Below are positions 21,041-55,337 of a stretch of 64,000 nt of DNA, piece after piece. The DNA is from Candidatus Bathyarchaeota archaeon (GTDB taxonomy: Archaea; Thermoproteota; Bathyarchaeia; Bathyarchaeales; Bathycorpusculaceae): positions 96,001-160,000 of the forward strand of contig OY970340.1 of NCBI GenBank assembly GCA_963717465.1. Reading direction: 5' to 3'. Numbering within the stretch: position 1 is the first letter of the stretch; each line of letters begins with the position of its first letter. The notes below the pieces were generated by a model. The model was not told the DNA's origin. It made no database searches and saw nothing but the letters and a program-made list of their open reading frames with translations. Both the position numbers and the translations under genes were made by a program.

Positions 21041-22402
21041 TTATCCCCATGTTGGGTAATCAAAACCCATATCTTTGAACTCTTTTGTAAATCGGTTATA
21101 GTGGTCCACTAATTCCTTCCTTGGTTTCAAAGTTTCCTGGTCATAGTATTCATAAAGGTTATGTGATAGCTGACCAAAGTCAAAAGCCTTCATAGCTGGT
21201 TCAAATTTCTTGATCCACTCTTTTATGAGCTTGTTGCCTTCACTTACTTTTGTTCCAGCCGCTGCTCTTGTGAATTCACTGCCAAACCTTGCGCTTATCG
21301 CAGGGAAAGTGCCTACCATCCACATTCCTTCTATCCCAGCTACACAACAAGTCATAACTGCCGCCGCTGTTCCATACCAGTCAACTTCATTCATAGGTTG
21401 ATTTAGACCAATTCCGCTAGTAAGCCATGGAGCTTTTATGTTTCTTTCTGCAGCTAAACCTACCGCTGAATTACTCCAAAAGACATCCGCACCTATGTAT
21501 TGATTATCAATGGTGTTGCTCATAGCCTGAGTGAATGAGCCATCAGCATAAGCCATCTGACCTATAGAGTGAGCCATAGATTCAAGTACTGATTCTTCTG
21601 GACCACTAATATACGCGTACAATGTAGGACTGGAACTCTGCCATGGAACAATTCCATGCTGCATAGCAAAGTAGGCAAGATTAATTCTATCAATGACTAT
21701 TCTCATGTCTTGCAGTATGTGTACTGGCATCATGCAGTTCCTAGGTGTGTAGTAGCCAGGGTCAAAAGCTTGCATCAAAGCAACCATGCTCGTTGCAGTC
21801 TCGGGAAAACCAAGTAACATGCCAGGTCTTCCAGCAGCACGCGCCGCAGCAGTCATCAGTTCACATTCAGTGTGAACCATCAGGGTTTCAGTAGGCGTTC
21901 CTCCTGTCGGTTTCTGACCAAAAGACGCCTCAATAATCGCGGGTATCATCCCGTCCGTCGTCGGTTCGCGAGCCATAAGATAAACAGCATCTCTCCATTG
22001 TCCTACGTCACTGCCCATCCAACCGCCAGCATTCAAACAGTATGGATGCTGCTTATCTTCAGGAGCTCTAATGTGCATTCTTAGTATATCTCTGCCTGTT
22101 CCCCACTCAACCTCATGCTTTCTTGTCTTAACAACTTCTTTAAGTTCATTTTCAGTGAACTTGACGAGGTGCTTAGTGTCTTTGCAATACAAACCGCATT
22201 GAACCAACAATTGTATGCCGGCTTCAAAAATAGCATCAGCCATTGCTGCATCCGACATAATTGGTTCGCCGTCAAATTTAATCTTGTAGTCTTGCACTAG
22301 TTTCTTGAGGATTGTTGGAAAATACGTGTTTTCAAATTCGTCTTCTTTCATTATTGGACCCGTTCGGGTTCTTTCTAAAACTTCCCACAATAAATGTCCC
22401 AT
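21041..22402 (-). CDS. MtmB-family corrinoid methyltransferase lacking pyrrolysine
   Basis: ERTRTGP, ADAIFEAG...G.YCKDT and AGRPGM..G.PET motifs. No in-frame TAG. Confidence 0.85.
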   Translation of the reverse strand: MGHLLWEVLERTRTGPIMKEDEFENTYFPTILKKLVQDYKIKFDGEPIMSDAAMADAIFEAGIQLLVQCGLYCKDTKHLVKFTENELKEVVKTRKHEVEWGTGRDILRMHIRAPEDKQHPYCLNAGGWMGSDVGQWRDAVYLMAREPTTDGMIPAIIEASFGQKPTGGTPTETLMVHTECELMTAAARAAGRPGMLLGFPETATSMVALMQAFDPGYYTPRNCMMPVHILQDMRIVIDRINLAYFAMQHGIVPWQSSSPTLYAYISGPEESVLESMAHSIGQMAYADGSFTQAMSNTIDNQYIGADVFWSNSAVGLAAERNIKAPWLTSGIGLNQPMNEVDWYGTAAAVMTCCVAGIEGMWMVGTFPAISARFGSEFTRAAAGTKVSEGNKLIKEWIKKFEPAMKAFDFGQLSHNLYEYYDQETLKPRKELVDHYNRFTKEFKDMGFDYPTWG

Positions 22403-24182: not shown

Positions 24183-24836
24183 TTAAGTTTTGCCTACGAG
24201 CATTCGTGCTTTTTTGATTGCGTCGCCGCAGTCTGCACCCCAAGTATCAGCCTTAATCCGCTTGCAGAAATCATCAGTCATCGGAGTACCGCCAACAAGC
24301 ACCTTATACTTCTTACGCAACCCACGCTCAACAAGCGTATCTACTAATGCTCTCTGATACGACATACTGCTAGTCATCAACGCACCCATAGCAACAATAT
24401 CAGCATGAACCTCTTCAGCCTTCTTCACATAGTCCTCGGTTGGAATCTCTTCACCTAAGTCATAAACGTCAAAGCCATCGGTACGCAACATGTCAGCAAT
24501 CAAGTTCTTGCCGATGCTGTGGATGTCACCGAAAGCCGTGCCAATTACGACTATGCCTTTTGCCTTTGGCAGCTTGTCTTTGGGATACTTTTCTTTGAGA
24601 TAGTTAACTGCAGCAGTCATCGCGTTAGCAGCCATAATCACGTAGGGTAGAGGATATTCAAAGCGGCCAAAACGGTCACCAACCTCTTTGATGCCAACAG
24701 ATAAGCCTTTCTCGATAGCATCCATAATCTCCAGCTTGTTCTCAACAGCTTCTTTTGCCGCTGCAACAGCCTTTTCCTCATCATAGTCAATGATTGCTTT
24801 AGCGAGGTGTTCAAGTACTTCAGCTTTAGTTACCAT
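24183..24836 (-). CDS. Methyltransferase cognate corrinoid protein (MttC/MtbC-like), copy 1
   Basis: GDIHSIGKN B12-binding motif, GALMTSSM, VGG, and N-terminal cap domain. Confidence 0.95.
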   Translation of the reverse strand: MVTKAEVLEHLAKAIIDYDEEKAVAAAKEAVENKLEIMDAIEKGLSVGIKEVGDRFGRFEYPLPYVIMAANAMTAAVNYLKEKYPKDKLPKAKGIVVIGTAFGDIHSIGKNLIADMLRTDGFDVYDLGEEIPTEDYVKKAEEVHADIVAMGALMTSSMSYQRALVDTLVERGLRKKYKVLVGGTPMTDDFCKRIKADTWGADCGDAIKKARMLVGKT

Positions 24837-24861: not shown

Positions 24862-26451
24862 TTAGAATCTTGCGCCTGTGCCTGATTTGTCTATTGTGTA
24901 GCCGCCGATCTGGTACATTTTATCGTATCTGGCTATGATTGCATTCATTCTGTCTGCTACTTCTTTTGGTGGCAGTGGAGCAGGGAAGTCTTTAATGATC
25001 TTCTGGGTTAAAGCGTTTGCACGATCATCCATGCATTTCTTGTCCTCGATCCATCGTAGATATTGTCTAACTTCCCACAAACCGTAACCGTGACGCATCG
25101 GAGCGAACATTAATTCCATCATATTTTTCACTGTATCCTTGTCCTTCATGAAGTCGCCTCTGGGACCCTTATTAAGCCACCCTTCAGGTTGGTAACTCTT
25201 GGCTGAAAAGTCAACGTCCCTGAAATACCACTTCATTATTCTAATCATTTCAGCGCATATAGCATAACCCATCATGTTGATTCCGTTTGGACCTACGGTT
25301 GTGGACCATTCTCCTGTCTGATCAGTACCGTTTTGGAATGCATTAAGCAAATGCCAACTCATCATGCCGTTTTGCGTATCAGAACCACCAGCGCCAACCG
25401 ATCCTACGGCTTGGCCAGGCCACATCGTAGCTTTTGGTCGACTGTAATTGCGGTGCCAGAAGTTCACGTGAATAGCAAGTGCCTTACTAAATATTTCTTC
25501 AGTGGTTGCTAATTGCTGAGTGTATGGGTCCATAGGCATGACCAGATCGTAAGTCATAACTGGGACATGGCCTTTCCCAACTCCGTTCAATCCCAAACTT
25601 AAACCTACTGACATCGATAAAGCTGCGGCAACAGTAACTGCGTAAGCTCCCGTTAAGCTGCATGGACCTTGGAATCCAGGTATGCAAACATCTGTGTAGT
25701 CTATAAGCAGAGGTCTGCTCTTCGCCCAGCCTTCTAAAGTTCCGCTCATTCTGTCACTTGTTTTTTGGCCGTAAACTAGACCTGGTGTGTCTCCATGGTT
25801 AGTTATGAATGGTCTCTTCGCAAGCTCATCAAATCCTCCGAGAACCTCAGCGGCTAAATCAGTGTAACATTCAATATGATCAATTGCGTCAATATGCCAA
25901 ATATGCTTTGTAGTGCATTGAATAGTACTGTTGAGATCATGAGTATCCACTGGCAAACCAGCCTCAGCCAAATCCATAGGTAAGTATATGGGGCTAGTCA
26001 TGTCATACTCGGGGAAGTACTCAACAACTTTTTGCTCTTTCCAGTTGTCAGCATCTACTCCATCTCGGAATTCAAATAGTCGTGTATCAGGATTCCATTT
26101 TGCATAAAGGGCCATTATGCCGAAAGCTCCAACAAAGACATTGTTGCTTCCTGCTTGCATAAAGCAGTCTTCTTTAGGAGCCCTACCTGGCAGAACCAAG
26201 TTGCTCGGCACTGCGTCTATGCCTTCGACTGCAATAGCTTCAGGAATTTTTACGATTCCCTTCTTCTCATCAACAACGGTGCAACCTATGTCTTTGTAGA
26301 TTTTTTGAAGCTTAGGTGTGAGACCTCCAACCCCAACTCTTTCTAATAGATAAACTGCGGCTTGATGTATTGACATTAGTTCTTCTCTCGTCGCTATAGG
26401 CGGAGAAAATCTCTTAGGTATATTTGTTCCAGTTCTCATTTTTCTTTTCAA
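24862..26451 (-). CDS. MttB-superfamily methyltransferase, pyrrolysine-free, copy 1
   Basis: IHQAAVYLLERVG, GPCSLTG, D.Q.G, GPRGDF and PLPPKEV..MNAII pattern; directly upstream of the corrinoid gene; no TAG. Confidence 0.8.
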   Translation of the reverse strand: MKRKMRTGTNIPKRFSPPIATREELMSIHQAAVYLLERVGVGGLTPKLQKIYKDIGCTVVDEKKGIVKIPEAIAVEGIDAVPSNLVLPGRAPKEDCFMQAGSNNVFVGAFGIMALYAKWNPDTRLFEFRDGVDADNWKEQKVVEYFPEYDMTSPIYLPMDLAEAGLPVDTHDLNSTIQCTTKHIWHIDAIDHIECYTDLAAEVLGGFDELAKRPFITNHGDTPGLVYGQKTSDRMSGTLEGWAKSRPLLIDYTDVCIPGFQGPCSLTGAYAVTVAAALSMSVGLSLGLNGVGKGHVPVMTYDLVMPMDPYTQQLATTEEIFSKALAIHVNFWHRNYSRPKATMWPGQAVGSVGAGGSDTQNGMMSWHLLNAFQNGTDQTGEWSTTVGPNGINMMGYAICAEMIRIMKWYFRDVDFSAKSYQPEGWLNKGPRGDFMKDKDTVKNMMELMFAPMRHGYGLWEVRQYLRWIEDKKCMDDRANALTQKIIKDFPAPLPPKEVADRMNAIIARYDKMYQIGGYTIDKSGTGARF

Positions 26452-26776: not shown

Positions 26777-29092
26777 TTATGGTCCAATAGGTCCGATGTT
26801 GGCTGAGTACACTTTTGCAAGATTAACTTTGAAGCACCAAGCTCCAAGTTCAGGACTAAGCTGCTCTGGACTATCTGGCACTGTAACGTTGATGTTCCAG
26901 TCTGCCCATCCATAAAGTGTTGGTTCCTCAGCTGGTAATTCAGGACGCCACCAGCCATGCTCGGGTGAAACGATTTTTGGATTTACTCCGAAGTCGTAAC
27001 GTACTGTCTGCATGCATCTGCCAAGCGGCGTCTCAATGTAAATCCATTCGCCATCGCCAATGCCCATGTTACGAGCCGTCAGTGGATGCATTTTTACACG
27101 TGGAAACGGACGCAAATGACGCATCAATGTTAAATGTCGATGTTCGCCATGCTGTGCTTCTTGGAATCTGGCTCCACTGCACATAATCAACGGATAATCT
27201 TTTGCAATATCAGGCGCACTTACCGGAGTCCAAGCGCACTCCACATAGTACGGCAGAGGATCAAACCCAAAGTCCTCCAGAATCGTTGAGTAGAATACAA
27301 CTTTGCCTTCAGGGGTTCCGAAGCCTCTAATCAATCCAGTGGTTGGATCAATTTGCTCGTACTTCTTGAACGTGGGGTTCCATGGTGGTACACCTTTCCA
27401 TTCGCCTATAACTTGCTTACGTGTCCAGCCTACTGGCTCATAGAACCAATCTTGGAACTGCTCTAAAGTCTTCCATTTCCAAACTCTATCGATTTTTTCG
27501 TTACCCAACATTTTAGCAGCAATGTGTCGGAATATTACCGCGTCGTCTTCTAAGTCCCACAATCCCGGTATCTTTTGAGCTACTGCACGATCGCCTGCAA
27601 TCTCAAACTCGATTGATCCTTGACATGAAATGGTTGCATATCCAGAAGGTCTCTCGAATTGACTAGTACCAGGCAGCACATAATCTGCTAACATGGCCTC
27701 AGGTGTCATCGAAGCGCATTCCACATAAACGAACAGTTCAAGCTTCTTAAGAGCTTCATAAATCTTCTTAGTGTTCGGATAACCTCGCATTGGACCTATT
27801 TCACCAGCCAACATCGCCTTAACAGGGTAAGGTTTTTCCGTCAAAATTGCCTCTATCGTTGCAGGCCAATTTGGAGCAATTGGTCCGGTATGTGGACCAC
27901 CCTTCCAATAGCCTTTGTCCATTCCTGCCTCAACAAGCGCTGCACCACCTGGCATCGTTAGCATCTTATACTTGTCCGACCCTATCTGTTTCTCCATTAT
28001 GCCCATATCAGTTTCATTAGCACAATCTGCAGCGGCTTCAGCACCCGAATAGAACTTGGGTTTTTGGTGCAGATATTCTCCGCCTTCTATGTCTATGTTG
28101 CCTGTTAACGCGGGCAGCATATATTTTGATCGAACGTTGTTTAATGAGTTCCTGCCTGCCGATTCGATTGCATAACCGAATGGGAAAGTGCATGGACTGT
28201 TTTTCACTACCCACCTAGCTGCCTCTCTGATTCTCTCGGCAGGAATCCAAGTTATTTCCGCAGCTTTCTCAGGAGTATACTGCTTGGCTCTTTCTTTGAG
28301 CTTGTCAAATCCAAAAGTCCACTTCTCCACGAAATCATGATCGTACAAGTCTTCTTCGATGATCACGTTTATCATAGCCATATTTAGTGCAGTGTCAGTT
28401 CCAGGCCTAATCGCCAACCACATTTCAGAAAGTCTAGTTGTTTCCGTATATTTTGGATCGACATTGAGCATTTTTACGCCAGCCTCTATTCCTGCAACAA
28501 ATCCTGGCCAAGAATACGTCCAAGATTCACTTGGGTTTGTGCCAGTTGTAAAGATACCCTTTGTTTTACCGGGAGTTATCATTGCATACGTTAATCCCAC
28601 GCCGTAGCCTAATCCTAAGGCTTGGTACGTGGGTCCAGCTCATGTGGTAGCTGCAGCAGAACCCCAGTTTGGGGAGCCTATCAACATACAGAGTTGATAC
28701 AGTCCCAAAGCAAGGTTTGCGGCTCGACCTGTGCCGTGGAATCCGCATACGGATTCGCCGCCATTCTTTGCTATGATTTCTTTTAGTTTATCAGATATTT
28801 CACTAATTGCTTGTTCCCAAGATATTTTCTGCCATTTGCCTTCGCCACGCTTGCCTATACGCTTCATCGGGTACATTGGCCTATCCTTATGATAAATGTA
28901 CTCAACACCATACTTCCACTTCTGACAATAAGGACCAGGATTAAATGGACTATCCCAATCAGGCTCAATCTTTGTGATTTTTCCGTTCTCAACCGTCTCG
29001 ACAAGTTGGCAGGAACCAGTACTGCAAAAACCGCAAACGCATCTATGAATCCCATCGAAACTCTTTGGATCTTCAAGTTTTTCACTCATCAT
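26777..29092 (-). CDS. Mo/W-bis-PGD oxidoreductase, acetylene-hydratase-like clade, copy 1; 771 aa with in-frame TGA (codon 151, probable selenocysteine)
   Basis: CxxCxxxxC..C Fe-S motif, ISWEQA, IRPGTD, ADYVLP and HGWW motifs. ORFs 28640..29092 and 26777..28600 are in the same frame and separated only by TGA at 28642-28640. Confidence 0.9.
28596..28633 (-). promoter_or_regulatory. SECIS-like hairpin 6 nt downstream of the in-frame UGA (copy 1)
   Basis: CCCACG-UA-CC-A-AGCCU-UAGGAUU-AGGCU-AC-GG-CGUGGG; conserved in the paralog. Confidence 0.7.
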
Positions 29093-29167: not shown

Positions 29168-29279
29168 TATTTAAAGTTGAATTATAACCGTTTTTTGCTT
29201 TTGCTACAAAAATAGGAATTATCATAAAATAGCAGGGACACTTGTCGCATTATGAATAAAATTTTGATACAATGTGCAA
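29168..29279 (-). promoter_or_regulatory. Regulon promoter module 3 (Mo/W enzyme 1)
   Basis: tatttaaa, ttttgctacaaaa, and tacaatgtg at 100 bp. Confidence 0.8.
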
Positions 29280-30762: not shown

Positions 30763-31341
30763 TTAAGAACGGGATTTAAGGGGTTTTCGAGTTGAAATTT
30801 CAGGTTGGAATAAAGCATTCAAGCTTCGCAATGAGAACGGCCTTGGAAACTTATTGCCTGTGCGGAACATAACGCTACGTGTTTCCACATGTGGTCGCTG
30901 AGGTAATAACAGTGTTTCTTTTTGCACTTCCTTAGACAATTCTACGAAACCATCATAGTTCTTATGCACAGATATCATGACCCAGTTCGTTGATTCTAAG
31001 CCTTGATCCTCTATAGCGCAAAGCACTTCAGGATGTCTCTGCATTAATTCACGAACTTTGCTAGTTTGTTCTGGTGTTATCACTTCAGTAGTTGAGGCAA
31101 ATGTAAATACGATAACATCTAGCCCCATTTTGTACAAGTTAGGGATTATAGTGTACTCTTTTATGTAACCATCCTGCTCCAGCTTCCTTCTCCTCCTAGA
31201 CAATGTCGTGTTACTAATTCCTAAAATTCTAGCAATTTCTCTATCGCTTTTACCGCCTAGCGCCATTAAGGCAAATAGAACTTTCAGGTTTTCCAAGGCT
31301 TTTCTATCTAACGTATCGTGCGTGCTCAAAAACTTATTCAT
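30763..31341 (-). CDS. Lrp/AsnC-like regulator (paralog 2)
   Basis: Same HTH as 22833..23441. Confidence 0.85.
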   Translation of the reverse strand: MNKFLSTHDTLDRKALENLKVLFALMALGGKSDREIARILGISNTTLSRRRRKLEQDGYIKEYTIIPNLYKMGLDVIVFTFASTTEVITPEQTSKVRELMQRHPEVLCAIEDQGLESTNWVMISVHKNYDGFVELSKEVQKETLLLPQRPHVETRSVMFRTGNKFPRPFSLRSLNALFQPEISTRKPLKSRS

Positions 31342-31484: not shown

Positions 31485-32090
31485 CTATGCATCAATGGGG
31501 TTGATTGTCTTGCCATCCCGCTTGTTTTTGACGCCATGCAATGGTTTGACAGATTGAAACAATGATTCCATGTTTCTGAACGAGAATGGTTTTGGAAACA
31601 TCTTATCCGTATGAAACATGAAAGTGTGAGTTTCGATGTGCGGTGGTTGATGAAGGGATAGTAATTCGTTTTGCACTTTTTTAGACAGGTCTATGAAACC
31701 ATCATAGTTCTTGTGCACAGTTATGCCAAGCCAGTTTGTACCTTCTAAACCTTGATCTTGTAGTATGCACAGAATTTCGGGATATTTCTGAATTAAATCA
31801 TGAGCCTCTTTAGATTGCACTGGTGTCACAACATCAGTAGTAGATGAAAAAGAAAACACTATAACCTCTAATCCCATTTTATGCAAATCAGGAATTATAG
31901 TATACTCTTTTATGTAACCATCCTGCTCCAGCTTCCTTCTCCTCCTAGACAATGTGGTATTACTAATCTCCAAAATCCGGGCAATCTCTCTGTCACTTTT
32001 ACCACATAACGCCATTAGAGCAAACAAAACTTGCAGGTTTTCCAGTAGCTTCTTATCTAACGTATCTTGCTTGCCCAAAAGCTTATTCAC
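31485..32090 (-). CDS. Lrp/AsnC-like regulator (paralog 3)
   Basis: Same HTH as paralogs 1 and 2. Confidence 0.85.
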   Translation of the reverse strand: MNKLLGKQDTLDKKLLENLQVLFALMALCGKSDREIARILEISNTTLSRRRRKLEQDGYIKEYTIIPDLHKMGLEVIVFSFSSTTDVVTPVQSKEAHDLIQKYPEILCILQDQGLEGTNWLGITVHKNYDGFIDLSKKVQNELLSLHQPPHIETHTFMFHTDKMFPKPFSFRNMESLFQSVKPLHGVKNKRDGKTINPIDA

Positions 32091-32254: not shown

Positions 32255-32908
32255 TTAGGTTTTGCCTACGAGCATTCGTGCCTTCTTAATGGCGTCACCG
32301 CAGTCTGCACCCCAAGTATCAGCCTTAATCCGCTTGCAGAAATCATCAGTCATCGGAGTACCGCCAACAAGAACCTTATACTTCTTACGCAACCCACGCT
32401 CAACAAGCGTATCAACGAGTGCTCTCTGATAAGACATACTGCTAGTCATCAACGCACCCATAGCAACAATATCAGCATGGACCTCTTCAGCCTTCTTCAC
32501 ATAATCCTCAGTTGGAATCTCTTCACCTAAATCATAAACATCAAAGCCATCAGTACGCAACATATCAGCAATCAAGTTCTTACCAATACTGTGAATATCA
32601 CCAAACGCTGTACCAATAACAACTATGCCTTTTGCCTTTGGCAGCTTATCTTTGGGATACTTTTCCTTGAGATAATTAACTGCAGCAGTCATCGCATTAG
32701 CAGCCATAATCACGTAGGGTAGTGGGTATTCGAAGCGGCCAAAGCGGTCACCAACTTCTTTGATGCCAACGGATAAGCCTTTCTCGATAGCGTCCATAAT
32801 CTCCAGCTTGTTCTCAACAGCCTCTTTAGCCGCTGCAACAGCCTCATCCTCATTATAATCAATGATAGCCTTAGCCAAATGCTCAAGAACTTCAGCCTTA
32901 GTCACCAT
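32255..32908 (-). CDS. Corrinoid protein, copy 2
   Basis: 214 of 217 residues identical to 24183..24836. Confidence 0.95.
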   Translation of the reverse strand: MVTKAEVLEHLAKAIIDYNEDEAVAAAKEAVENKLEIMDAIEKGLSVGIKEVGDRFGRFEYPLPYVIMAANAMTAAVNYLKEKYPKDKLPKAKGIVVIGTAFGDIHSIGKNLIADMLRTDGFDVYDLGEEIPTEDYVKKAEEVHADIVAMGALMTSSMSYQRALVDTLVERGLRKKYKVLVGGTPMTDDFCKRIKADTWGADCGDAIKKARMLVGKT

Positions 32909-32932: not shown

Positions 32933-34507
32933 TTAGAATCTGGCGCCCGTTCCTGTTTTGTCTGCCGTGTAGCCGCCTATTTGGTACATCTTATCATACT
33001 TAGCAATAATTTCATTCATTTTGTCAGCTACGTCTTTTGGTGGTAATGGATTTGGAAATTCCTTTACGATCTTGTTAGTCAGGGCGAAAGCGCGATCATC
33101 CATGGTAAGCTTGTCTTCAATCCACCGAAGATATTGCCTCGTTTCCCATAAGCCATAACCATGACGCATAGGATAGAAGCCAGTATCTACCATGTTTTGC
33201 AAAGTGTATTTTTCCTTCATGAAGTCTCCTCTTGGGGTCTTCGTGAGCCATACATCTTTCATGTATGCGCCGGATGAAAAGTCTAAGTCCTTGAAATACC
33301 ATGTCATCATTCGAAGCATTTCAGCTGTCACAGCATAGCCCCATGGATTGATTCCATTCGGACCTACGGTGGAACTCCAACATCCTGTCTGATCAGTAGC
33401 GCTTTGGAGGGCGTTAAACAGATTGTAACTCATTAGGCCATTTTGTGTGTCTGAACCGCCACTGTAACCTCCTATGCTTTGTCCAGGCCACATTGTTGCT
33501 TTTGGCAAACTGTAGTTGCGGTGCCAGAAGTTCACATGAAGAGATAGCGCTTTACCGAATTGATCACCACATGCTGCTAGCATTTGCGTGTACGGCTCCA
33601 TGGGCATCACCAGATCATAGGTCATGACGGGGATATGGCCTTTTGCGACTCCGCCCATTCCCAAACCTAAACTTACCGCCATTCCTATAGATGAAGCCAC
33701 AGTCACTGAGTAGGCGCCCGTTAAGCTAATGGGACCTTGGAAACCAGGTATGCACACGTCAGTGAAATCTATAAGCAGAGGCCTGTTATTCTTCCAGCCT
33801 TCCAACGTACCAGTCATTCTGTCGCAAGTCTTTTGTCCATAAACTAAGCCTGGAGTGTCTCCATGGTTAGTTATGAACGGTCTCTTCGCAAGCTCATCAA
33901 ATCCTCCAAGAACCTCAGCAGCTAAATCAGTATAGCATTCAATATGATCAATTGCATCAATATGCCAAATATGCTTGGTAGTACATTGAATAGTGCTGTT
34001 AAGATCATGAGTATCCACTGGCAAACCAGCCTCAGCCAAATCCATAGGCAGGAAAATTGGGCTCGTCATATCGAACTCTGGGAAGTACTCAACAATTTTC
34101 TGCTCTCTCCAGTTGTCAGCGTCAACACAGTCTCTGAATTCAAAAAGTCGCGTAGCCGGATTCCATTTACCATAGAGAGCCATAATCCCAAAACCGCCTG
34201 CAAGAGTTCTGTTGCTTCCAGCGGATAAGAAACAGTCATTCTGGGGCGTCCTACCTGGCAAAATCTGCTCACTTGGTATTGCATTTACGGCTTCTACTGC
34301 AAGACCCTGAGACATCTTAGCAATTCCTTTCTTCTCGTCAACAGTGCAACCTAAATCCTTATAGACTTTGCAAAGCTTAGGAGTAACGCCTCCTACTCCA
34401 ATTCTTTCCAGCAGAAACATTGCGGCTTCATGGATTGACATTAATTCTTCTTTCGTTGCTAAAGAAGGGTTAGTGAACCTTCTAGGTACATTTATTCCTG
34501 TTCTCAA
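32933..34507 (-). CDS. MttB-superfamily methyltransferase, pyrrolysine-free, copy 2
   Basis: Full-length paralog of 24862..26451. Confidence 0.8.
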   Translation of the reverse strand: MRTGINVPRRFTNPSLATKEELMSIHEAAMFLLERIGVGGVTPKLCKVYKDLGCTVDEKKGIAKMSQGLAVEAVNAIPSEQILPGRTPQNDCFLSAGSNRTLAGGFGIMALYGKWNPATRLFEFRDCVDADNWREQKIVEYFPEFDMTSPIFLPMDLAEAGLPVDTHDLNSTIQCTTKHIWHIDAIDHIECYTDLAAEVLGGFDELAKRPFITNHGDTPGLVYGQKTCDRMTGTLEGWKNNRPLLIDFTDVCIPGFQGPISLTGAYSVTVASSIGMAVSLGLGMGGVAKGHIPVMTYDLVMPMEPYTQMLAACGDQFGKALSLHVNFWHRNYSLPKATMWPGQSIGGYSGGSDTQNGLMSYNLFNALQSATDQTGCWSSTVGPNGINPWGYAVTAEMLRMMTWYFKDLDFSSGAYMKDVWLTKTPRGDFMKEKYTLQNMVDTGFYPMRHGYGLWETRQYLRWIEDKLTMDDRAFALTNKIVKEFPNPLPPKDVADKMNEIIAKYDKMYQIGGYTADKTGTGARF

Positions 34508-34570: not shown

Positions 34571-34682
34571 TATTTAAGGTTAAATTATAAGTCAGTTTCA
34601 GCTTTTGCCACAAAATAAGACATTTCAACAATTGTCAATGACATTATCACATAATGAACAGAGTTTTTGGCACAATGTGCAA
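34571..34682 (-). promoter_or_regulatory. Regulon promoter module 7 (mttB-like 2)
   Basis: tatttaag, ttttgccacaaaa, and cacaatgtg at 100 bp. Confidence 0.8.
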
Positions 34683-34828: not shown

Positions 34829-37145
34829 TTAAGGTCCCATGGGCCCGATGTTGGCTGAGTATACTTTTGCAAGATTAGCCTTGAAGCACCATGCACCAAG
34901 TTCAGGGCTAAGATGCTCTGGGCCGTCAGGCACTGTAACGTTAATGTTCCAGTCTGCCCATCCATAAAGCGTTGGTTCCTCAGCCGGCAACTCAGGACGC
35001 CACCAGCCGTGTTCTGGGTCGATTATCTTGGGGTTAACACCAAAATCATAACGTACTGTCTGTCTGCATCTGCCAAGCGGTGTTTCAATGTAAACCCATT
35101 CGCCATCTCCGATACCCATATTCCGTGCTGTAAGTGGATGCATCTTTACACGTGGAACCGGACGTAAATGACGCATTAACGTGAGATGTCGATGTTCACC
35201 ATGCTGCGCTTCTTGGAATCTGGCTCCACTGCACATAATCAGCGGATAGTCTTTTGCAATGTCTGGTGCACTGATCGGTGTCCATGCACATTCCACATAG
35301 TACGGCAACGGATTGTACCCAAGTTCTTCTAAGATGGTTGAGTAGAACGCAACTTTGCCCTCAGGGGTACCAAAGCCTCTAACCAGCCCAGTCTCTGGAT
35401 CGATCTCTTCGTATTTCTTGAACCTTGGCTCATAGGGCGGAACACCCTTCCATTCTTCAATAACTTGCTTTCGTGTCCAACCAGCGGGCTCGTAGAACCA
35501 AGCTTGAAATTCCTCTAGAGTCTTCCAATGCCAAACTTCATCAACTCTTTGTTTACCGACAACGGCGACAGCTAGGTCTCTGAATATGATGCTGTCGTCT
35601 TTTAGATCCCAAAGTCCAGGTATTTTCTGGGGTAGTGCGCGGTCGCCTGCAATCTCAAACTCAATCTGGCCTTGACATGAACAGGTTGCGTACCCAGATG
35701 GCCTCTCAAATTGACTGGTACCGGGCAGCACGTAATCTGCTATCATAGCCTCTGGAGTCATGGAAGCGCATTCTACGTAAACAAAGAGGTCAAGTTTCTT
35801 TAAAGCCTCGTAAACTTTCTTGGTGTTCGGATAGCCTCTCATGGGACCTACTTCACCGGAAAGCATAGCTTTAATGGGGTATGGTTTTCCCGTTAAAATC
35901 GTATCTATCGTGCTAGGGAAGTTTGGACCTATTGGCCCAGCGGATGGAACTCCCTTCCAGTATCCTTTATCCATTCCTGCAGCAATAATTGCACCTGCGC
36001 CAGGATAAGCCAGCATCTTATACTTGTCCGCTCCTATCTGGTTTGACATCATTGACATGTCACAAGCGTTTATGACATCAGTATGCATCTCAGTACCTGA
36101 GTGGAATTTGGGTTTTGCATGCAGATATTCGCCGCCTTCTACGTCAATGTTGCCTGTTAACGCAGGTAACATATATTTTGATCGGATGTTGCTCAAAGAG
36201 TTCCTGCCTGCTGATTCGATTGCGTAGCCGAATGGAAAATCGCATGGATGATTTTTCGCTATAAATCGGGCAGCTTCTTTTATCTTTTCAGCTGGAATCC
36301 AAGTAATTTCCGCAGCCTTCTCAGGCGTATACTGCTTAACGCGCTCTTTGAGCTTATCAAATCCAAAACACCATTTCTCCACAAAATCATGATCATACAA
36401 GTCCTCCTCAATGAGAACGTTCAACATAGCCATATTCAGCGCAGTATCAGTTCCAGGCCTAATTGCTAACCAAACTTCTGAAAGTCTACCAGTCTCAGTA
36501 AATCTTGGATCAACAGTGAGCATTTTTACGCCAGCATCTACACCTGCAACAAACCCAGGCCACGAATACGTCCAAGACTCTCTTGGGTTCGTACCAGATG
36601 CAAAGATACCCTTAGTCTTACCAGGAATTATGTTTGCATACGTTAATCCCACGCCATAGCCTACTCCTAAGGCTTGGATCGTGGGTCCGGCTCATGTCTG
36701 AGCAGCAGCGGAACCAAAGTTTGGGCTACCCATCATGATAAAGAAAGCAGCCTGTCCAAGACCCAGATTCGCAGCTTCGCCCGGTGCCGCTAAAGCCGCA
36801 AATTGATTCTCCACCGTACTTTTCCTTGATTTCTTTCACTTTTGTGGATATTTCTTCGGTCGCTTGTTCCCATGATATTCTTTGCCATTTGCCTTCTCCA
36901 CGTTTGCCTATTCTTTTTATTGGATACATCGGTCTGTCCTTGTTGTAAATGTATTCTAAACTGTACTTCCATTTTACACAATAGGGGCCCGGATTGAACG
37001 GGCTTTCCCAATCAGGCTCGACCTTTGTGATTTTTCCATTCTCAACAGTCTCAACAAGTTGACAGGAACCAGTACTGCAAAAACCGCAAACACACCTGTG
37101 AATCCCATCGAAACTCTTTGGATCTTCAAGTTTTTCACTCATCAT
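34829..37145 (-). CDS. Mo/W-bis-PGD oxidoreductase, copy 2; in-frame TGA at 36694-36692; one extra base near 36776 (probable sequencing indel)
   Basis: Span is 2317 nt, i.e. copy 1 length plus 1. The corrected frame reads GTGRAANLGLG...GSPNFGSAAAQT-TGA-AGPTIQALG. Confidence 0.88.
36648..36685 (-). promoter_or_regulatory. SECIS-like hairpin 6 nt downstream of the in-frame UGA (copy 2)
   Basis: CCCACG-AU-CCA-AGCCU-UAGGAGU-AGGCU-A-UGG-CGUGGG. Confidence 0.7.
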
Positions 37146-37204
37146 CCTATCTCCTATTTTTACTGTGTTTTTAGCACAAAAATGAATGTATGCAGCCTGA
37201 TGGA

Positions 37205-37316
37205 TATTTAAGGTTAGATTATAAGGCAGTTTGGATTTTTGCCACAAAATAAGGCATATAAGCAATTCTAATTGACATTATAGCATGAAAAGTATTTATT
37301 TTGGCACAATGTGCAA
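37205..37316 (-). promoter_or_regulatory. Regulon promoter module 8 (Mo/W enzyme 2)
   Basis: tatttaag, ttttgccacaaaa, and cacaatgtg at 100 bp. Confidence 0.8.
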
Positions 37317-37474: not shown

Positions 37475-37587
37475 CACATTGTGTTAAAAAAAACCGCAAT
37501 TTAATGCAACATTTCAAAACATTAGTTACCTCTTTCAGCTTGTTTTGAGGCAGAAATTTGAAAGCAATATACGACTTAGCTTAAATA
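37475..37587 (+). promoter_or_regulatory. Regulon promoter module 9, inverted (SDR pseudogene)
   Basis: cacattgtg, ttttgaggcagaa and cttaaata in mirrored order; spacing 104 bp. Confidence 0.7.
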
Positions 37588-37660
37588 ACATTGTAATCTC
37601 CTATTATTTTTCAATAAGAAAAGTTGGAGATTTTGACAAAGATAGAATTGAGGAATTTAA

Positions 37661-38507
37661 GATGGACATGAAGAATTTATTTGGTTATGAAAAGCAGACA
37701 GTGGTGGTTGTCGATGCCGCCTCTGGAATTGATAAGGAAACAGCTTAGATATTAGTTGAACTTGACGCCGAAGTGTACGGTTTAGATATTCAGGAAACCA
37801 AGACTTCAGGTGTTAAGTACATTAATGTAGACTTGAGGAAAAACAATCAATCGAGGCTGCAATCGCGAAGTTGCCTTCAAAGGTTGACAAGATTTTCAAT
37901 GTTGTAGGAATTGGCGAATCGCCGAATCGCGTTGATATAGTTCTAATAAATTTCGTTGGACACAGACATATCATTGAAAATCTTCTTCCACGGATGCCAG
38001 ATGGCAGTGGAGCTATTGCGATAGTTTCATCCCTTGGCGGCTTGGCTTGGTTGATGAACCTGCAGAATGTGCAAACTTTTCTTGCCATACCAGATTGGGA
38101 AGGCGCCGTTGCATGGCTTGAAGAACATAAAGAGGATCCTGAAATCATCGGCGGACCAAAGCAGAACATTAGAGAATATAATTTTTCCAAAGAATGTCTC
38201 GTTGCATACACCAAGGCACGCGCTTATCAGCTATCTCAAAGAGGCATTAGATTAAACACAATCATGCCTGGTGTCACTCAAACTCCGTTGTTGAAGGGAA
38301 TGACCGATGAACAGGGGAAAAAACATAATATCACTTATTGGACGTTACGCGAAGGCTGCTGAACAGGCATGGACGCTCGTATTTCTAAACAGCAATTTAG
38401 CAAGTTACATTAGTGGAGCAGACATCGTCGTTGACTATGGATTCTCAGGCGGCATATACACCGGTCAAGTAGATCTGTCAAAGACAGGTTGGCTGCCCTC
38501 TGTTTAA
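37661..38507 (+). pseudogene. Short-chain dehydrogenase/reductase (3-alpha-HSD/coniferyl-alcohol DH-like), disrupted
   Basis: YNFSK, IRLNTIMPG.TQTPL and SYISG..I.VDYG motifs. In-frame TAG at 37746, two frameshifts, and GxxxGxG degraded to DAASGID. Confidence 0.8.
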
Positions 38508-49226: not shown

Positions 49227-52109
49227 ATGCCCGAAGAATCGCCAAGAACGACTAACCAATTTCGCAAATTCGGCAATTATCTTGTAGGAGATATACCATG
49301 GGGAACGCATCTTTGTCAATTTTACGAGTCAAAACAAGACTTAATCGACATTTTGGTTCCTTACTTTGCTGAAGGTCTCAACAGCAATGAATTCTGCATG
49401 TGGGTTACTTCTCCACCTCTTGAGGTTAAAGAAGCCAAACAAGCACTTGCCAAAGCAGTCTCAAATATAGATGACTATCTGCGAAAAGGGCAACTTGAGG
49501 TAATGTCTTATAACGATTGGTACTTGCAAAGTGGAAAGTTTGATGCTGACCGAGTCCTACAGGGTTGGGTTGACAAAGAGAAGAAAGCATTGGAAAGTGG
49601 TTTCGAAGGTTTACGTCTTAGCGGTAACACTTTCTGGGTTGAACGGAGTCTTTGGCAAAATTTTGCCTCTTATGAAAAGACCGTGAACTCGATTATCGGC
49701 AAGCACAAGATGCTTGCCCTTTGCACCTATCGTTTATCGAACTGCTCAGGCACGGATGTTGTAGACGTGGTTCGCAATCATGTTGGAGCGCTGATTAAAC
49801 AAGGCAAAAAATGGGTTCTAGTTGAGGATGTAGTGCACCGTAAGAAAGCCGAGCAAGAGCTTTGGAATGCGAAGACCGATTGGGAACGAACTTTTGATGC
49901 TATTCCTGATTTCATAGCAATCTTGGATAATAAGTTTAGAATAGTGCGGGTTAATTTGGCTATGGCAAAGCAGTTAGGGGTATCTCCTGAAGATGCTGTG
50001 GGATTGAAATGTTATGAATGCGTTCATGGAACAGCATCTCCGCCGAATTATTGTCCCCATGCCCAACTATTAAGAGATGGCAAGGAGCATTCCAGCGAGG
50101 TTTTTGAAGATCGTCTTGGCGGGGACTTTTTGGTTAGCACCACTCCGCTTGTGGATGAAAATAAAAAATTAATTGGTTGTGTGCATGTTGCACGGAACAT
50201 TACTCATCGTAAAAAAGCCGAAGATGATCTTAAGAGAAGTGAACAGCGGTGGATAACCACTGTGTCTAGCATTGGCGATGGGGTTATTACGACTAATTTG
50301 GATGGTAATGTCACTTTCCTTAATAGCGTTGCACAAGAGTTGACTGGTTGGAAGCTTAATGAAGCTTTACAAAAGCCGCTTAAAGAAGTCTTCAATATAG
50401 TTAATGAATTCAGCCGTAAGGAAGTTGAAAACCCAGTTAGCCGAGTTCTCAAGGAAGGTACAATTGTAGGGCTTGCTAATCATACACTTCTAATAAAGAA
50501 GAACGGTGAAGAAATTCCCGTTGACGATAGTGGTGCTCCGATAAAAGATAAAGACGGACACGTTTCGGGTGTTGTGCTAGTTTTCCGCGATATAACTGTG
50601 CGGAAAAAAATGGAGAAGGAGTTAATCAGCCTTGCCAAGTTTCCGTCCGAAAACCCGAATATCGTATTGCGTGTCGACAAAAGCGGTGTTATCTTGTATG
50701 CTAATCCTGGGAGCCAAAACTTGCTTTACCAGATCAAATTAGAGCCAGGCGATCTAATTCAAGAACCTTGGCTTTCAAACATAACTGAGGCTTTTTCTAC
50801 TAACAGCAAGATAGTTTTTGAAGAAAAAGTAGGAGAACGCGTCTTTTTGTTTAATACTGCGCCGATTCTTCAGGAAGGATACGTGAATGTTTATGGAATC
50901 GACATTACTGAACGCAAGAAAGCTGAAGAAGCACTTAAAGAGAGTGAAGAACGCTTTTCCAAGGCATTTAATGCAAATCCTAATCCTATACTAATCCAAA
51001 GAGTCAGCAATACTATATTTGTTGACACGAACGAAGCATACTTGCACCTGTTTGGGTTCAAGAAACATGAAATTATTGGGCACACGGCTGCAGAGCTGGG
51101 AATAGTAATAGACCCTAAAGTCAGAGCGGAAATAATTAGTGGGTCAAAGCAACACAAAATTGCTAGCAATGAATCCGTATTCATGACGAGGAGAGGAGAA
51201 CATCGGTATCTGTTGATTTCAACGGCAATAATCACTTTTAATGGAGAAGATCACTTTTTATCGATTCTTACAGATATCACAGAGCGTAAGAAATCGGAAG
51301 AAGACCTAAGAGAACGCACTCAGCAATTAGAAGTTTCACAAAAAAAACTTGAAGAAAATGCTTTCCAGCTTGAGGAGTATGCAAGCCAAATGGAGGACCT
51401 TGCAAAGGCTAGGCTGGAGCAACTTAAGGATGCTGAAAGATTGGCTGCAATTGGGGCAACGGCAGGCATGGTTGGTCATGACATCCGTAATCCCCTACAA
51501 TCTATAATGAATGACTTGTATTTAGCGAAGATAGACTTATCTGATCTTCCAGATAGTGAACAAAAGGAGAGTATTCTAGAAAGCGTGAGAGCAATTGAAC
51601 AATCCGTGGATTATGTTAATAAGATTGTTCAGGACTTGCAGGACTTTGCAAAACAAATCAAGCCTACCAAAAAAGAAACCGAAGTTGAAGAACTAATTAG
51701 TCTAGTTATTTCAAAAAGTAATTTGCTTCCAAACATTAAAGTAAAAACGAAAGTTCAGAAAGAAGCAAACACAATTATAACTGATCCAGATTTGCTTAGA
51801 AGAATTATTAGCAACTTAGTTTCAAACGCGTTCCAAGCAATGCCAAACGGTGGGAAACTCGATATAGACGTTTATATGGAAAGAGAAAGCGTCGTCATTT
51901 CAGTCAGTGATTCTGGCCATGGAATTCCTGAAGATGCAAGAGACAAGCTGTTCACTCCGCTTTTTACAACTAAATCTAAAGGTCAAGGTTTCGGTTTAGC
52001 TGTAGTCAAACGCATTACTGAAGCCTTAGATGGCTCTGTGTCCTTCGAGAGTGAAGTTGGCAAAGGAACTAAATTCATTTTAAAGTTTCCAAAATCATCT
52101 AAAGTCTAA
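49227..52109 (+). CDS. MEDS-PAS(x4) sensor histidine kinase
   Basis: WGTHLCQFY (MEDS), PAS repeats, GHDIRNPL H-box, and N/G1/F/G2 boxes. Confidence 0.92.
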   Translation: MPEESPRTTNQFRKFGNYLVGDIPWGTHLCQFYESKQDLIDILVPYFAEGLNSNEFCMWVTSPPLEVKEAKQALAKAVSNIDDYLRKGQLEVMSYNDWYLQSGKFDADRVLQGWVDKEKKALESGFEGLRLSGNTFWVERSLWQNFASYEKTVNSIIGKHKMLALCTYRLSNCSGTDVVDVVRNHVGALIKQGKKWVLVEDVVHRKKAEQELWNAKTDWERTFDAIPDFIAILDNKFRIVRVNLAMAKQLGVSPEDAVGLKCYECVHGTASPPNYCPHAQLLRDGKEHSSEVFEDRLGGDFLVSTTPLVDENKKLIGCVHVARNITHRKKAEDDLKRSEQRWITTVSSIGDGVITTNLDGNVTFLNSVAQELTGWKLNEALQKPLKEVFNIVNEFSRKEVENPVSRVLKEGTIVGLANHTLLIKKNGEEIPVDDSGAPIKDKDGHVSGVVLVFRDITVRKKMEKELISLAKFPSENPNIVLRVDKSGVILYANPGSQNLLYQIKLEPGDLIQEPWLSNITEAFSTNSKIVFEEKVGERVFLFNTAPILQEGYVNVYGIDITERKKAEEALKESEERFSKAFNANPNPILIQRVSNTIFVDTNEAYLHLFGFKKHEIIGHTAAELGIVIDPKVRAEIISGSKQHKIASNESVFMTRRGEHRYLLISTAIITFNGEDHFLSILTDITERKKSEEDLRERTQQLEVSQKKLEENAFQLEEYASQMEDLAKARLEQLKDAERLAAIGATAGMVGHDIRNPLQSIMNDLYLAKIDLSDLPDSEQKESILESVRAIEQSVDYVNKIVQDLQDFAKQIKPTKKETEVEELISLVISKSNLLPNIKVKTKVQKEANTIITDPDLLRRIISNLVSNAFQAMPNGGKLDIDVYMERESVVISVSDSGHGIPEDARDKLFTPLFTTKSKGQGFGLAVVKRITEALDGSVSFESEVGKGTKFILKFPKSSKV

Positions 52110-54425: not shown

Positions 54426-55337
54426 TTAATATTGGAAAATTTTGTGAATCGGATGTGAGCTATTTAGCAGTTTTGTTCCTAAACCAGAAGTTGCTGTTGC
54501 GATGTAAGTGTCAGTTATGGCGACTGCTGGGAACACCCATTCTGCTTGCTCTGCTGGACCAATCATAAGCCAGTTTGCGCCTGCCGTTTGCATGATAGCG
54601 TTTGTTGCAGTTACACAGCCCTTTCGAAATTCTTTGGCAATTTTCGTTTTGACCCAACTCATTGTTGTAGCAACATTTCCACTTACTAAACCAACGGGAT
54701 GCCCATACTTTTCCTTTATTAGTGACATAGCTCTAACTGCGGTACCCATTTCAGGAGTGAACGCGGGGATAGAAGCGTCAATCAACGGCTTTGTAATTCC
54801 AGCTTTATGAGCTAACGCTAATACTTCATCAATAATCTGCAATTTTCCCTCAGCACTGTTGTCTTGAGGATTATCAGCGATAACGATACACGCTTTTATT
54901 CCAGATTCCTTAAGCACAGCCAATTCCGCCTTATCAATGCCCTTGTAAATCGAGTTGTATATGCATCTATCTTGAAGACCCATTTGCTTAGCAAGCTTTG
55001 CGGCACCTATATGAGCGTCATGACCCACAGCATCAAGCAAGAGTGGTGCATCACTGTGTTTAGCAAGGAAATCCATGTATTTTCCAAAAGCTTCTTCGGT
55101 CGTGCCAAATACATCAAAGGCAAATTTGACCCCAGTTAGGTCACTTTGAGTTTGTACTCTGTTGATTATTTTTTCTGCCTCATTCTTATCAAAGATGCCT
55201 TTATCGACATCTTGAACAATTTTTTGAGTAAGCCAAAAGATTGAGCACATCAAAAAAGTGGGTAACTCGCCAGGCTGACCGCCGACTTTTACTCCACCTA
55301 TCTCGTAAATATTTTGTTTAGTTTTAAACTTAAACAT
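54426..55337 (-). CDS. mtrH: MtrH/MtgA-family methylcorrinoid:tetrahydropterin methyltransferase
   Basis: GGVKVGGQPGELPT..SIF, IYNSI and HPIHKIF motifs. Confidence 0.88.
   Translation of the reverse strand: MFKFKTKQNIYEIGGVKVGGQPGELPTFLMCSIFWLTQKIVQDVDKGIFDKNEAEKIINRVQTQSDLTGVKFAFDVFGTTEEAFGKYMDFLAKHSDAPLLLDAVGHDAHIGAAKLAKQMGLQDRCIYNSIYKGIDKAELAVLKESGIKACIVIADNPQDNSAEGKLQIIDEVLALAHKAGITKPLIDASIPAFTPEMGTAVRAMSLIKEKYGHPVGLVSGNVATTMSWVKTKIAKEFRKGCVTATNAIMQTAGANWLMIGPAEQAEWVFPAVAITDTYIATATSGLGTKLLNSSHPIHKIFQY

Follow-up and report, generated by a model that had tools for sequence, protein, structure and literature searches.

An in-frame UGA followed by a hairpin as a probable selenocysteine codon at the metal-ligand position of acetylene-hydratase-like enzymes in a bathyarchaeon

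Introduction

Only FdhA and FwdB are given as pyranopterin enzymes that bear selenocysteine (Sec) in the available parts of the literature (PMC13188914 Table 1, PMC11227280, PMC10100899). A 2026 review that counts 119 families of prokaryotic selenoproteins mentions "molybdopterin" once (for MoeB) and "acetylene hydratase" never in its accessible text, and for archaea it reports Sec use from no groups but Methanococcales, Methanopyrales and Asgard archaea, with selenoproteomes of 1-19 genes and Sec insertion sequence (SECIS) elements in untranslated regions (UTRs) (PMC13188914, as far as the available portions go). Here we analyze a stretch of 64,000 nucleotides of Candidatus Bathyarchaeota archaeon (the window; assembly GCA_963717465.1, contig OY970340.1, positions 96,001 to 160,000), in which two paralogous genes for acetylene-hydratase-like molybdenum/tungsten (Mo/W) enzymes, copy 1 and copy 2, each contain an in-frame TGA. 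We present evidence that the TGA of copy 2 is very probably a Sec codon at the metal-ligand position of an enzyme of the acetylene hydratase branch, and we describe a hairpin that follows it inside the open reading frame (ORF).

A hairpin in the ORF after the UGA is an arrangement described for bacteria and, in the portions of the literature at hand, not for archaea. The bacterial SECIS consensus has a loop of 3-9 nt, an upper stem of 4-16 bp, a distance of 16-37 nt from UGA to loop and a minimum free energy of -7.5 or below (PMC13188914 Fig. 2, available part). SECIS elements of Methanococcales/Methanopyrus and the eukaryote-like ones of Asgard archaea are placed by the accessible sections of two sources in the 3' UTR, rarely in the 5' UTR, with GAA_A or AUGA_GA cores (PMC11227280, PMC13188914). 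In a literature search covering full text, where supplementary tables may list more, no report was found of a Sec-containing enzyme of the acetylene hydratase type or of an archaeal in-ORF SECIS element.

Results

An in-frame TGA in two paralogous genes

The two genes and their TGA codons are the following.

34829..37145, minus strand: copy 2, gene for an acetylene-hydratase-like Mo/W-bis(pyranopterin guanine dinucleotide) (bisPGD) enzyme, from ATG at 37143-37145 to TAA, broken as assembled by a 1-nt insertion
36692..36694, minus strand: in-frame TGA of copy 2, probable Sec codon (from paralogue conservation and alignment to an invariant Cys and to Cys141 of acetylene hydratase)
26777..29092, minus strand: copy 1, gene for an acetylene-hydratase-like Mo/W-bisPGD enzyme, 771 codons, intact except for the TGA
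28640..28642, minus strand: in-frame TGA of copy 1 at the equivalent codon (from read-through and tblastn of the paralogues)

The TGA of copy 2 is in the frame of an ORF at 34829..36652, whose start is the GTG at 36650-36652, leaving a gap of 39 nt. An earlier sequence-only reading had put this TGA at the same codon as that of copy 1, 39 nt before the GTG, and this is what is seen on the minus strand in the frame of the ORF. With U for Sec, the short context is GSPNFGSAAAQT-U-AGPTIQALG in copy 2 and GSPNWGSAAATT-U-AGPTYQALG in copy 1, and the longer read-through contexts are MMGSPNFGSAAAQT-U-AGPTIQALGVGYGVG and LIGSPNWGSAAATT-U-AGPTYQALGLGYGVG, respectively. If the codon is read as Sec, the peptide expected across the site is AAAQT-U-AGPTIQALGVGYGVGLTYANIIPGK.

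That flanking residues and synonymous sites differ between the copies was borne out by a synonymous divergence (dS) of ~1.07-1.15. The ratio of nonsynonymous to synonymous divergence (dN/dS, Nei-Gojobori), which the sequence-only reading had proposed to compare across the TGA, is 0.127 over the 150 codons upstream and 0.105 over the 620 codons downstream (dS ~1.1) and hence is not near 1 downstream; other paralogue pairs have values of 0.06-0.15. Purifying selection acts on both flanks of the UGA.

Enzyme family and position of the TGA

Copy 1 contains the Pfam domains Molybdop_Fe4S4 (PF04879), Molybdopterin (PF00384) and Molydop_binding (PF01568) in the order of the Mo/W-bisPGD (MopB, DMSO reductase) superfamily, and the same three domains are spread over two pieces of copy 2. 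No NCBIfam model scored above its cut-off, the best being PhsA (244.7 vs. 694) and the formate dehydrogenase (FDH) alpha model TIGR01591 (227.7 vs. 666.25), with TIGR01553 at 102.2 against 814.2. The nearest solved structure is acetylene hydratase (2e7z, E 1.5e-102, residues 18-755 on 4-717), followed by thiosulfate/polysulfide reductase (2vpw, E 1.5e-49). These comparisons place the enzyme in the Mo/W-bis-pyranopterin (MopB, DMSO reductase) superfamily, on its acetylene hydratase branch. The U aligns with the cysteine of "MYMCIGNT" in 2e7z, which is Cys141, the tungsten ligand of that enzyme.

The likeness to the tungsten/[4Fe-4S] acetylene hydratase of Pelobacter acetylenicus (2e7z) thus extends over nearly the full length and includes the alignment of U with the W-ligand cysteine. 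Our enzyme is likewise taken to be cytoplasmic, since no twin-arginine signal was seen by eye in the N-terminus. The two differ in the cluster motif (CX2CX4C here, CX2CX3C in 2e7z), in the predicted Sec ligand and in the surroundings of the gene, 4 of 11 loci here lying beside genes for MttB-like and corrinoid proteins. They also differ in the residue after the second cluster cysteine, which is Ser here (C-S) and Asp in 2e7z (C-D); the latter is Asp13, the catalytic Asp, and because it is not kept we do not call the enzyme an acetylene hydratase. With the Sec-containing formate dehydrogenases and FwdB (FdhA/FdhF/FdnG, FwdB), the enzyme shares the superfamily domains and, on the Sec reading, the use of Sec for Cys as protein ligand of Mo/W. 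It falls in another branch, however: the FDH models score far below cut-off, the best solved relative is acetylene hydratase rather than an FDH, and the site motif is U-[A/D/Y/F]-[G/A]-P (U-A-G-P in copies 1 and 2), compared with the UHxP listed for FdhA and FwdB in the available part of PMC13188914 (Table 1).

TGA and cysteine across paralogues and homologues

The genome (3,053,889 bases in one contig, 40% G+C) holds 11 paralogues with 41-81% identity to copy 1 (tblastn). All 11 have TGA at the equivalent codon as the sole stop inside the aligned piece, a pattern far beyond chance, and gene callers truncate all of them there. Two remoter relatives in the genome (31% and 29% identity) have no TGA at this codon.

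A search of 5.8 billion proteins gave 1529 matches among 8000 scored candidates, of which 120 were listed. Among the matches listed, the ten closest (62-100% identity) are 442-607 aa long and cover 57-79% of copy 1, and ORF calls from other contigs (P0002, P0004-P0007, P0009) have 560-607 aa and 73-79% coverage. Their short length and coverage indicate ORFs cut at the TGA codon. Full-length homologues begin, among the matches listed, at 44% identity and below, and in the 12 that were aligned (40-44% identity) the U column is an invariant Cys (12/12).

A related-locus search of genome contigs returned no confirmed relative of copy 1; three pattern matches in high-GC bacteria were dismissed as chance, having no related protein. 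A metagenome scan gave 79 loci, all of <=41% identity and none a close relative of the Sec clade, and among 86 rows of high-scoring segment pairs the aligned column holds TGC or TGT in 34, many others having Cys one column off. In one of the 79 loci (L065:191-2422, plus strand), the ligand codon is TGA (AGAGLI-U-FGPAMAP) and a G+C-rich hairpin comes after it; the remaining loci have Cys at or beside the site. A Zn_peptidase_2 neighbor suggests that the host of L065 is a bacterium, and the locus is an independent Cys-to-Sec switch in the enzyme family.

We placed these sequences in a quick IQ-TREE tree of 43 rows, leaving out the frameshifted copy 2, p9 and p10 and sampling every second listed homologue of 650-820 aa. 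The eight intact paralogues of the genome form one clade (Shimodaira-Hasegawa-like approximate likelihood-ratio support 96), sister to two Cys forms (100), with L065 placed elsewhere among the Cys forms. On this tree, the change from Cys to Sec would have occurred at least twice, and Sec would be older than the split of paralogue p11 from the rest.

A hairpin six nucleotides after the UGA

Both copies can form a hairpin after the UGA.

36648..36685, minus strand: hairpin of copy 2, inside the ORF, 6 nt after the UGA, -19.9 kcal/mol
28596..28633, minus strand: hairpin of copy 1 after the UGA, -19.4 kcal/mol

The UGA is followed by six unpaired bases, CCCACG, an internal loop, AGCCU, a 7-nt loop, AGGCU and CGUGGG, with a lower stem of 6 bp (CCCACG/CGUGGG) and an upper stem of 5 bp. 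The apical loop is UAGGAUU in six copies and UAGGAGU in copy 2 (36660-36666, minus strand); either form resembles the genes' own ribosome-binding site, UAGGAGAU. RNAalifold gives the fold unaided, and 93.4% of cells are paired in the named structure, compared with 21-50% when the partners are slid. Compensatory changes occur in four of the five upper-stem pairs, and the observed covariation score was reached by none of 500 shuffles. The lower stem of p11, CCAACG/CGUUGG, is shifted by one base (as judged by eye) and was scored as broken in the ungapped alignment.

Conservation is unusually high over the 50 nt that come after the UGA. Synonymous identity has its gene-wide peak at codons 146-160, and outside the start codon region the sole peak of synonymous constraint sits at the UGA. 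Of the codons with at least four-fold degeneracy, 180 encode an invariant amino acid, and 14 of these are themselves invariant, namely 4 of 7 in the hairpin vs. 10 of 173 elsewhere (Fisher P = 7e-4). The four are CCC, ACG, GGC and GTG of the lower stem, three of which are rare codons (CCC 12%, ACG 25%, GTG 19%). Between copy 1 and copy 2, dS is 0.17 in the hairpin codons vs. 1.07 over the whole gene. No such structure was found at 70 loci of Cys-type homologues (mean z -0.07, z <= -2 in 3/70) or in the genome's own Cys paralogue (z +1.06). An Rfam scan of the window at gathering thresholds returned only a tRNA.

Like bacterial SECIS elements, for example those of E. coli fdhF and fdnG, the hairpin belongs to a Mo-enzyme gene and is placed within the ORF, directly downstream of the UGA. 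The paralogue hairpins have loops of 7 nt, upper stems of 5 bp, 22 nt between UGA and loop and energies of -16 to -22 kcal/mol, all within the bacterial consensus. With respect to the bacterial rule of a G in the first two loop positions, the GG of UAGGAUU stands at positions 3-4 (GG is found in the loop of 10 of 11 paralogues), and the rule, with the loop pattern N1-G-G-N-N2, is matched under one reading of the loop alone, in which a U-U mismatch is spanned and an A and a U close a loop of 3 nt. The system further differs from the bacterial one in its archaeal host with PSTK, SepSecS and an archaeal-type Sec elongation factor (EFSec), in that no SelA or SelB winged helix was found, and in that no Rfam SECIS family matched. 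A similar spacing is known from a eukaryotic element, the Sec redefinition element (SRE) of SEPN1, which is spaced 6 nt from its UGA. The SRE is also an in-ORF stem-loop a few nucleotides after the UGA (named in the available part of PMC4989117), but it acts together with a 3'-UTR SECIS, and no such partner is visible here.

3' and 5' flanks

The 3' flanks of the 11 genes are A+T-rich, with a run of five or more T 6-31 nt past the stop in 10 of 11, and they have no common structure (folding z -1.0 to +1.8). In p7, the next gene begins ~50 nt past the stop. The genome was also without a match to the eukaryote-type SECIS model RF00031 (0 of 69 candidates). What the paralogues have in common in their 5' leaders is limited to short promoter-proximal motifs. 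The Sec systems of Methanococcales/Methanopyrus and Asgard archaea are like the present one in the kind of Sec-synthesis machinery and in the selenoproteins SelD, HdrA and FrhD/MvhD, and differ in that their SECIS elements lie in UTRs, whereas here the 3' flanks are short, T-rich and unstructured and RF00031 is silent.

Sec machinery of the host

Genes of the window for eIF-6, L31e, S19e, prefoldin, archaeosine TGT and a family B polymerase identify the host as an archaeon. Its genome encodes two tRNA-Sec with anticodon TCA (96% identical to each other), SepSecS (488.9 bits vs. a cut-off of 224.85) and a SelD that is itself a selenoprotein, with an in-frame TGA at VHG-U-SCK. Two further ORFs (732 and 730 aa, 54% identical) join a KTI12/PSTK-like kinase, EF-Tu domains and aSelB_III.

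G000:C1:952742-954937, plus strand, and 2827369-2829549, minus strand: genes for the PSTK-EFSec fusions (loci L008, L009)

In the second fusion gene, which lies beside the second tRNA-Sec gene, GTPase motifs are changed (VEMPGN instead of VDLPGH, SKID instead of NKID). The accessible parts of the literature do not mention fusions of this kind. In the same genome, SelA reached only 20.5 bits at best (cut-off 267.9), and the winged-helix domain of SelB (PF09107) had no match, the E. coli control being positive. TGA terminates 350 of 1381 long ORFs and is therefore an ordinary stop in this genome.

The Sec trait is rare in the phylum. SepSecS was found in none of 25 other sampled genomes of the same genus and in one of 300 other sampled genomes of the phylum (G235), i.e., 2/301, and the PSTK-EFSec fusion in the same one of 300 (again 2/301). 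At E <= 1e-30, the enzyme family was absent from 30 other genomes (18 of the same genus, 12 of the same order). G235, a relative of 1.2 Mb in the same order, has a compact Sec cluster (G235:C92:12369-16787; loci L139, L149, L150) with SepSecS, a PSTK-EFSec fusion and a divergent SelD with TGA. Two leads were discarded: matches to PSTK-EFSec from the protein similarity search were look-alike CysN/CysC fusions at 0.89 and uninformative, and an apparent TGA in SelD of another genome (G016) turned out to be a break close to the 3' end, the Sec site itself encoding Cys.

Other candidate Sec codons in the genome

A scan of the 5710 TGA codons with an open frame on both sides, at a fold threshold of -16 kcal/mol in the next 54 nt, left 98 codons, among them those of the 11 paralogues and four other sites of interest. 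The threshold is reached by 2% of 2000 random in-ORF windows and by 1.7% of 350 TGA stops. Of 14 candidate Sec-UGAs (in the 11 paralogues, HdrA, FlpD and SelD), all but that of SelD, hence 13, have a hairpin of -16 to -25.8 kcal/mol after them. The four other sites lie in two genes.

G000:C1:1519920-1522484 (locus L141:621-3185), minus strand: HdrA-FlpD(MvhD) fusion gene, 854 codons, two in-frame TGAs at classic Sec sites
G000:C1:2822990-2824225 (locus L148:1491-2726), minus strand: weakly URO-D-like gene (Pfam E 0.0077), two in-frame TGAs

The TGAs of the HdrA-FlpD fusion stand at TLDCSI-U-IEGP (-25.8 kcal/mol) and FMCNW-U-GYAGAD (-22.8 kcal/mol), each with the stem after 6 nt, and the gene has an A+T-rich 3' flank. 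The Pfam FlpD domain spans the second TGA. The URO-D-like gene, with TGAs at VISF-U-EEP and FMMS-U-GCPMGH, lies directly downstream of a corrinoid protein gene and 4 kb from the second tRNA-Sec locus; it is possibly a methyltransferase selenoprotein. The stem begins 6 nt after the UGA at three of these four sites, the exception being the first TGA of the URO-D-like gene (~27 nt). In G235, SelD has a hairpin of -19.1 kcal/mol with a 6-nt spacer after the UGA. The eight HdrA-like matches in that genome have no internal stop and are all Cys forms, and it has no acetylene-hydratase-like (AH-like) gene.

The frameshift in copy 2

Copy 2 differs from copy 1 by one additional base.

36776..36777, minus strand: extra A in copy 2 (CGA-A-GCT; CGA-GCC in copy 1), which shifts the frame

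The first 125 codons of copy 2 (MMSEKLED...GFSGTGR, with the 4Fe-4S cysteines) are in a different frame, in an ORF at 36726..37265. The sequence-only reading had taken both genes to be full length. This is correct for copy 1, a single frame of 771 codons, and not for copy 2, where the 1-nt insertion lies 83 nt upstream of the TGA. Its further claim, that neither a sequencing error nor a nonsense pseudogene is involved, stands for the TGA itself in view of the 11 paralogues, the invariant metal-ligand Cys, purifying selection on both sides and the Sec machinery, while copy 2 itself may still be a pseudogene owing to the upstream insertion. Over the 125 codons before the shift, dN/dS between copy 2 and copy 1 is 0.07, and any inactivation of copy 2 would therefore be very recent. 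A programmed +1 frameshift was set aside, as the insertions found in three paralogues lie at three unrelated sites with no common slippery context.

Indel errors in the assembly are hinted at by an essential gene of the same window, that for ribose-phosphate pyrophosphokinase (1345-2204, minus strand), whose N domain (1578-2204) and C domain (1345-1701) are encoded in overlapping ORFs of different frame. The completeness score of only 88% for this closed genome fits such errors. Copy 2 may thus be an assembly casualty or a young pseudogene. Adjoining it, a match to a short-chain dehydrogenase (37488-38362, plus strand) is confined to the final third of the family model and lies in a stop-to-stop frame of 178 aa; with its upstream frames broken, we regard this piece as a gene remnant or a further frameshift.

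Neighborhood and shared upstream motif

MttB-like and corrinoid protein genes lie downstream of both copies, and a motif recurs upstream.

32933..34507, minus strand: methyltransferase-like gene of the MttB superfamily, without in-frame TAG, downstream of copy 2
32255..32908, minus strand: corrinoid (B12-binding) protein gene downstream of copy 2
24862..26451, minus strand: MttB-superfamily gene downstream of copy 1
24183..24836, minus strand: corrinoid protein gene downstream of copy 1
37237..37249, minus strand: motif TTTTGTN[GT]C[AG]AAA before copy 2, 104 nt from the start
29199-29211, minus strand: same motif before copy 1
34603-34615, minus strand: same motif before the MttB-like gene

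MttB-superfamily and corrinoid protein genes are found within ~5 kb of 4 of the 11 paralogue loci. The corrinoid protein genes are 94-100% identical over seven copies in the genome, whereas the adjoining MttB-like genes are 69-83% and the enzyme genes 71-81% identical, which suggests that the former have undergone gene conversion or that their product is very strongly constrained. Eight of the 11 paralogues have the upstream motif in their promoters, at 93-121 nt from the start codon, accompanied by TTGCACATTGTGCC-like and TATA-like boxes. Of its 24 occurrences in the genome, 9 stand before AH-like or MttB-like genes, which makes a shared regulon likely; the genes concerned suggest a link to methyl-group metabolism. 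The window is dense in genes of methyl transfer: it includes an MtmB-family ORF of 453 aa without in-frame TAG, i.e., a non-pyrrolysine form (21041-22402, minus strand), and an MtrH gene (54426-55781, minus strand) beside a gene for a small B12-binding protein. Two HTH_24 regulators (30763-31341 and 31485-32090) are encoded between the two clusters, and a MEDS-PAS histidine kinase at 49227-52109.

Discussion

The reading that we prefer, and consider very probable, is that the TGA at 36692-36694 encodes Sec, which would take the position of the cysteine that binds tungsten or molybdenum. The host would make its Sec-tRNA by the archaeal/eukaryotic route, for which it has tRNA-Sec, SepSecS, a Sec-containing SelD and a fusion of a PSTK-like kinase with the Sec elongation factor. 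The in-ORF hairpin 6 nt after the UGA would direct, or at least help, the recoding, as the short T-rich 3' ends have no conserved structure, and one of the two PSTK-EFSec proteins is the candidate for its reader. These parts do not carry equal weight: the codon and its conservation among paralogues, its alignment with Cys in homologues, purifying selection on both sides and the genes of the machinery are shown, and the role of the hairpin is inferred. Whether the genome places hairpins in the bacterial style beside machinery of the archaeal type is, in our estimate, evenly balanced. The full proposal, in which UGA is decoded through in-ORF bacterial-style hairpins read by PSTK-EFSec, with Sec synthesis of the archaeal/eukaryote type, and in which the 11 genes encode the first Sec-liganded enzymes of the acetylene hydratase type, is put forward tentatively, with chances slightly short of even.

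Four other explanations have to be considered. One is readthrough of the UGA by a near-cognate tRNA that inserts a standard amino acid (Cys or Trp), with the hairpin as stimulus and without selenium; it strikes us as very improbable. Hairpins a few nucleotides after a stop codon do stimulate readthrough. The genome nevertheless has a complete Sec pathway, when SepSecS is found in 0/25 other sampled genomes of the genus, and its other genes with UGA are classic selenoproteins with the codon at classic sites (SelD, HdrA, FlpD domain). Still less credible is a genuinely split gene, with an Fe-S protein of 150 residues ending at the TGA and a catalytic protein of 607 residues starting at the GTG 39 nt on. 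In its favor, the apical loop, with the sequence UAGGAGU in copy 2 and UAGGAUU in six other copies, is similar to the genes' ribosome-binding site UAGGAGAU and stands 11 nt before the GTG. However, such an enzyme would lack the invariant metal ligand, the 13 codons from TGA to GTG encode the conserved AGPTxxALGLGYG, the corresponding "start" of p11 is GTT instead of GTG, and the full-length homologues are single chains. For copy 2 alone, it is conceivable, though we think it rather unlikely, that the gene is a young pseudogene that inherited its TGA from a functional selenoprotein ancestor and makes no full-length enzyme now because of the 1-nt insertion. The division of the gene between two frames by the extra A at 36776/36777 and the insertions in p9 and p10 speak for this; the low dN/dS before the shift, by which inactivation must be very recent, and the split pyrophosphokinase gene and completeness score, which fit assembly indel errors, speak against it.

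The explanation that bears most on the hairpin leaves the Sec codon untouched and denies that the structure is a SECIS element. It could be a recoding helper, like the eukaryotic SRE, or a pausing structure, with the true SECIS elsewhere or with an element that is read in an undescribed way. We give this roughly the same modest chance as the pseudogene. In its favor, the published archaeal SECIS elements lie in UTRs (PMC13188914, PMC11227280, available parts), the fixed 6-nt spacer would place the hairpin at the mRNA entrance of the ribosome when the UGA is in the A site, and the genome's SelD has no strong hairpin. On the other hand, the 3' flanks have neither a conserved structure nor one of unusual stability, the 5' leaders have no more than short promoter-proximal motifs in common, RF00031 has no match in the genome, and the sole peak of synonymous constraint outside the start region is located at the UGA.

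Several observations weigh against the interpretation of the UGA as a Sec codon read with the help of an in-ORF hairpin. Archaeal EFSec does not have the winged-helix domain that binds SECIS elements in bacteria, and the in-ORF element therefore lacks an explained reader. The SelD of the genome has only -9.1 kcal/mol after its UGA. The dinucleotide-shuffle z-scores of single hairpins are modest (-1.95 in copy 2, -2.36 in copy 1), and the covariation counts are not independent events, as the paralogues are kin. The hairpin matches no Rfam family (an E-value scan of 12 loci gave one chance hit to a long non-coding RNA). A covariance model built from it recovers only the 11 paralogues and one match at E 8.6; the model is too sequence-specific to find other families. 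The generality of the arrangement rests on a few other genes of one genome and on SelD of one relative. Finally, copy 2 carries its frameshifting insertion, and in p9 and p10 too a single base is inserted, in each case elsewhere and outside a homopolymer, so that part of the enzyme family may be decaying.

If the preferred reading is correct, it would add a new selenoprotein family, with a Sec ligand in an enzyme of the acetylene hydratase type, and a selenoproteome that comprises 13 genes with at least 14 Sec-UGA codons, outside the lineages to which archaeal Sec use has been confined. On the practical side, gene callers would be cutting all 11 genes at their Sec codon. The hairpins would provide a case of in-ORF recoding elements together with an archaeal EFSec, which bears on what recognizes SECIS elements in archaea, and would, if this holds true, represent a third way of combining Sec machinery with SECIS placement.

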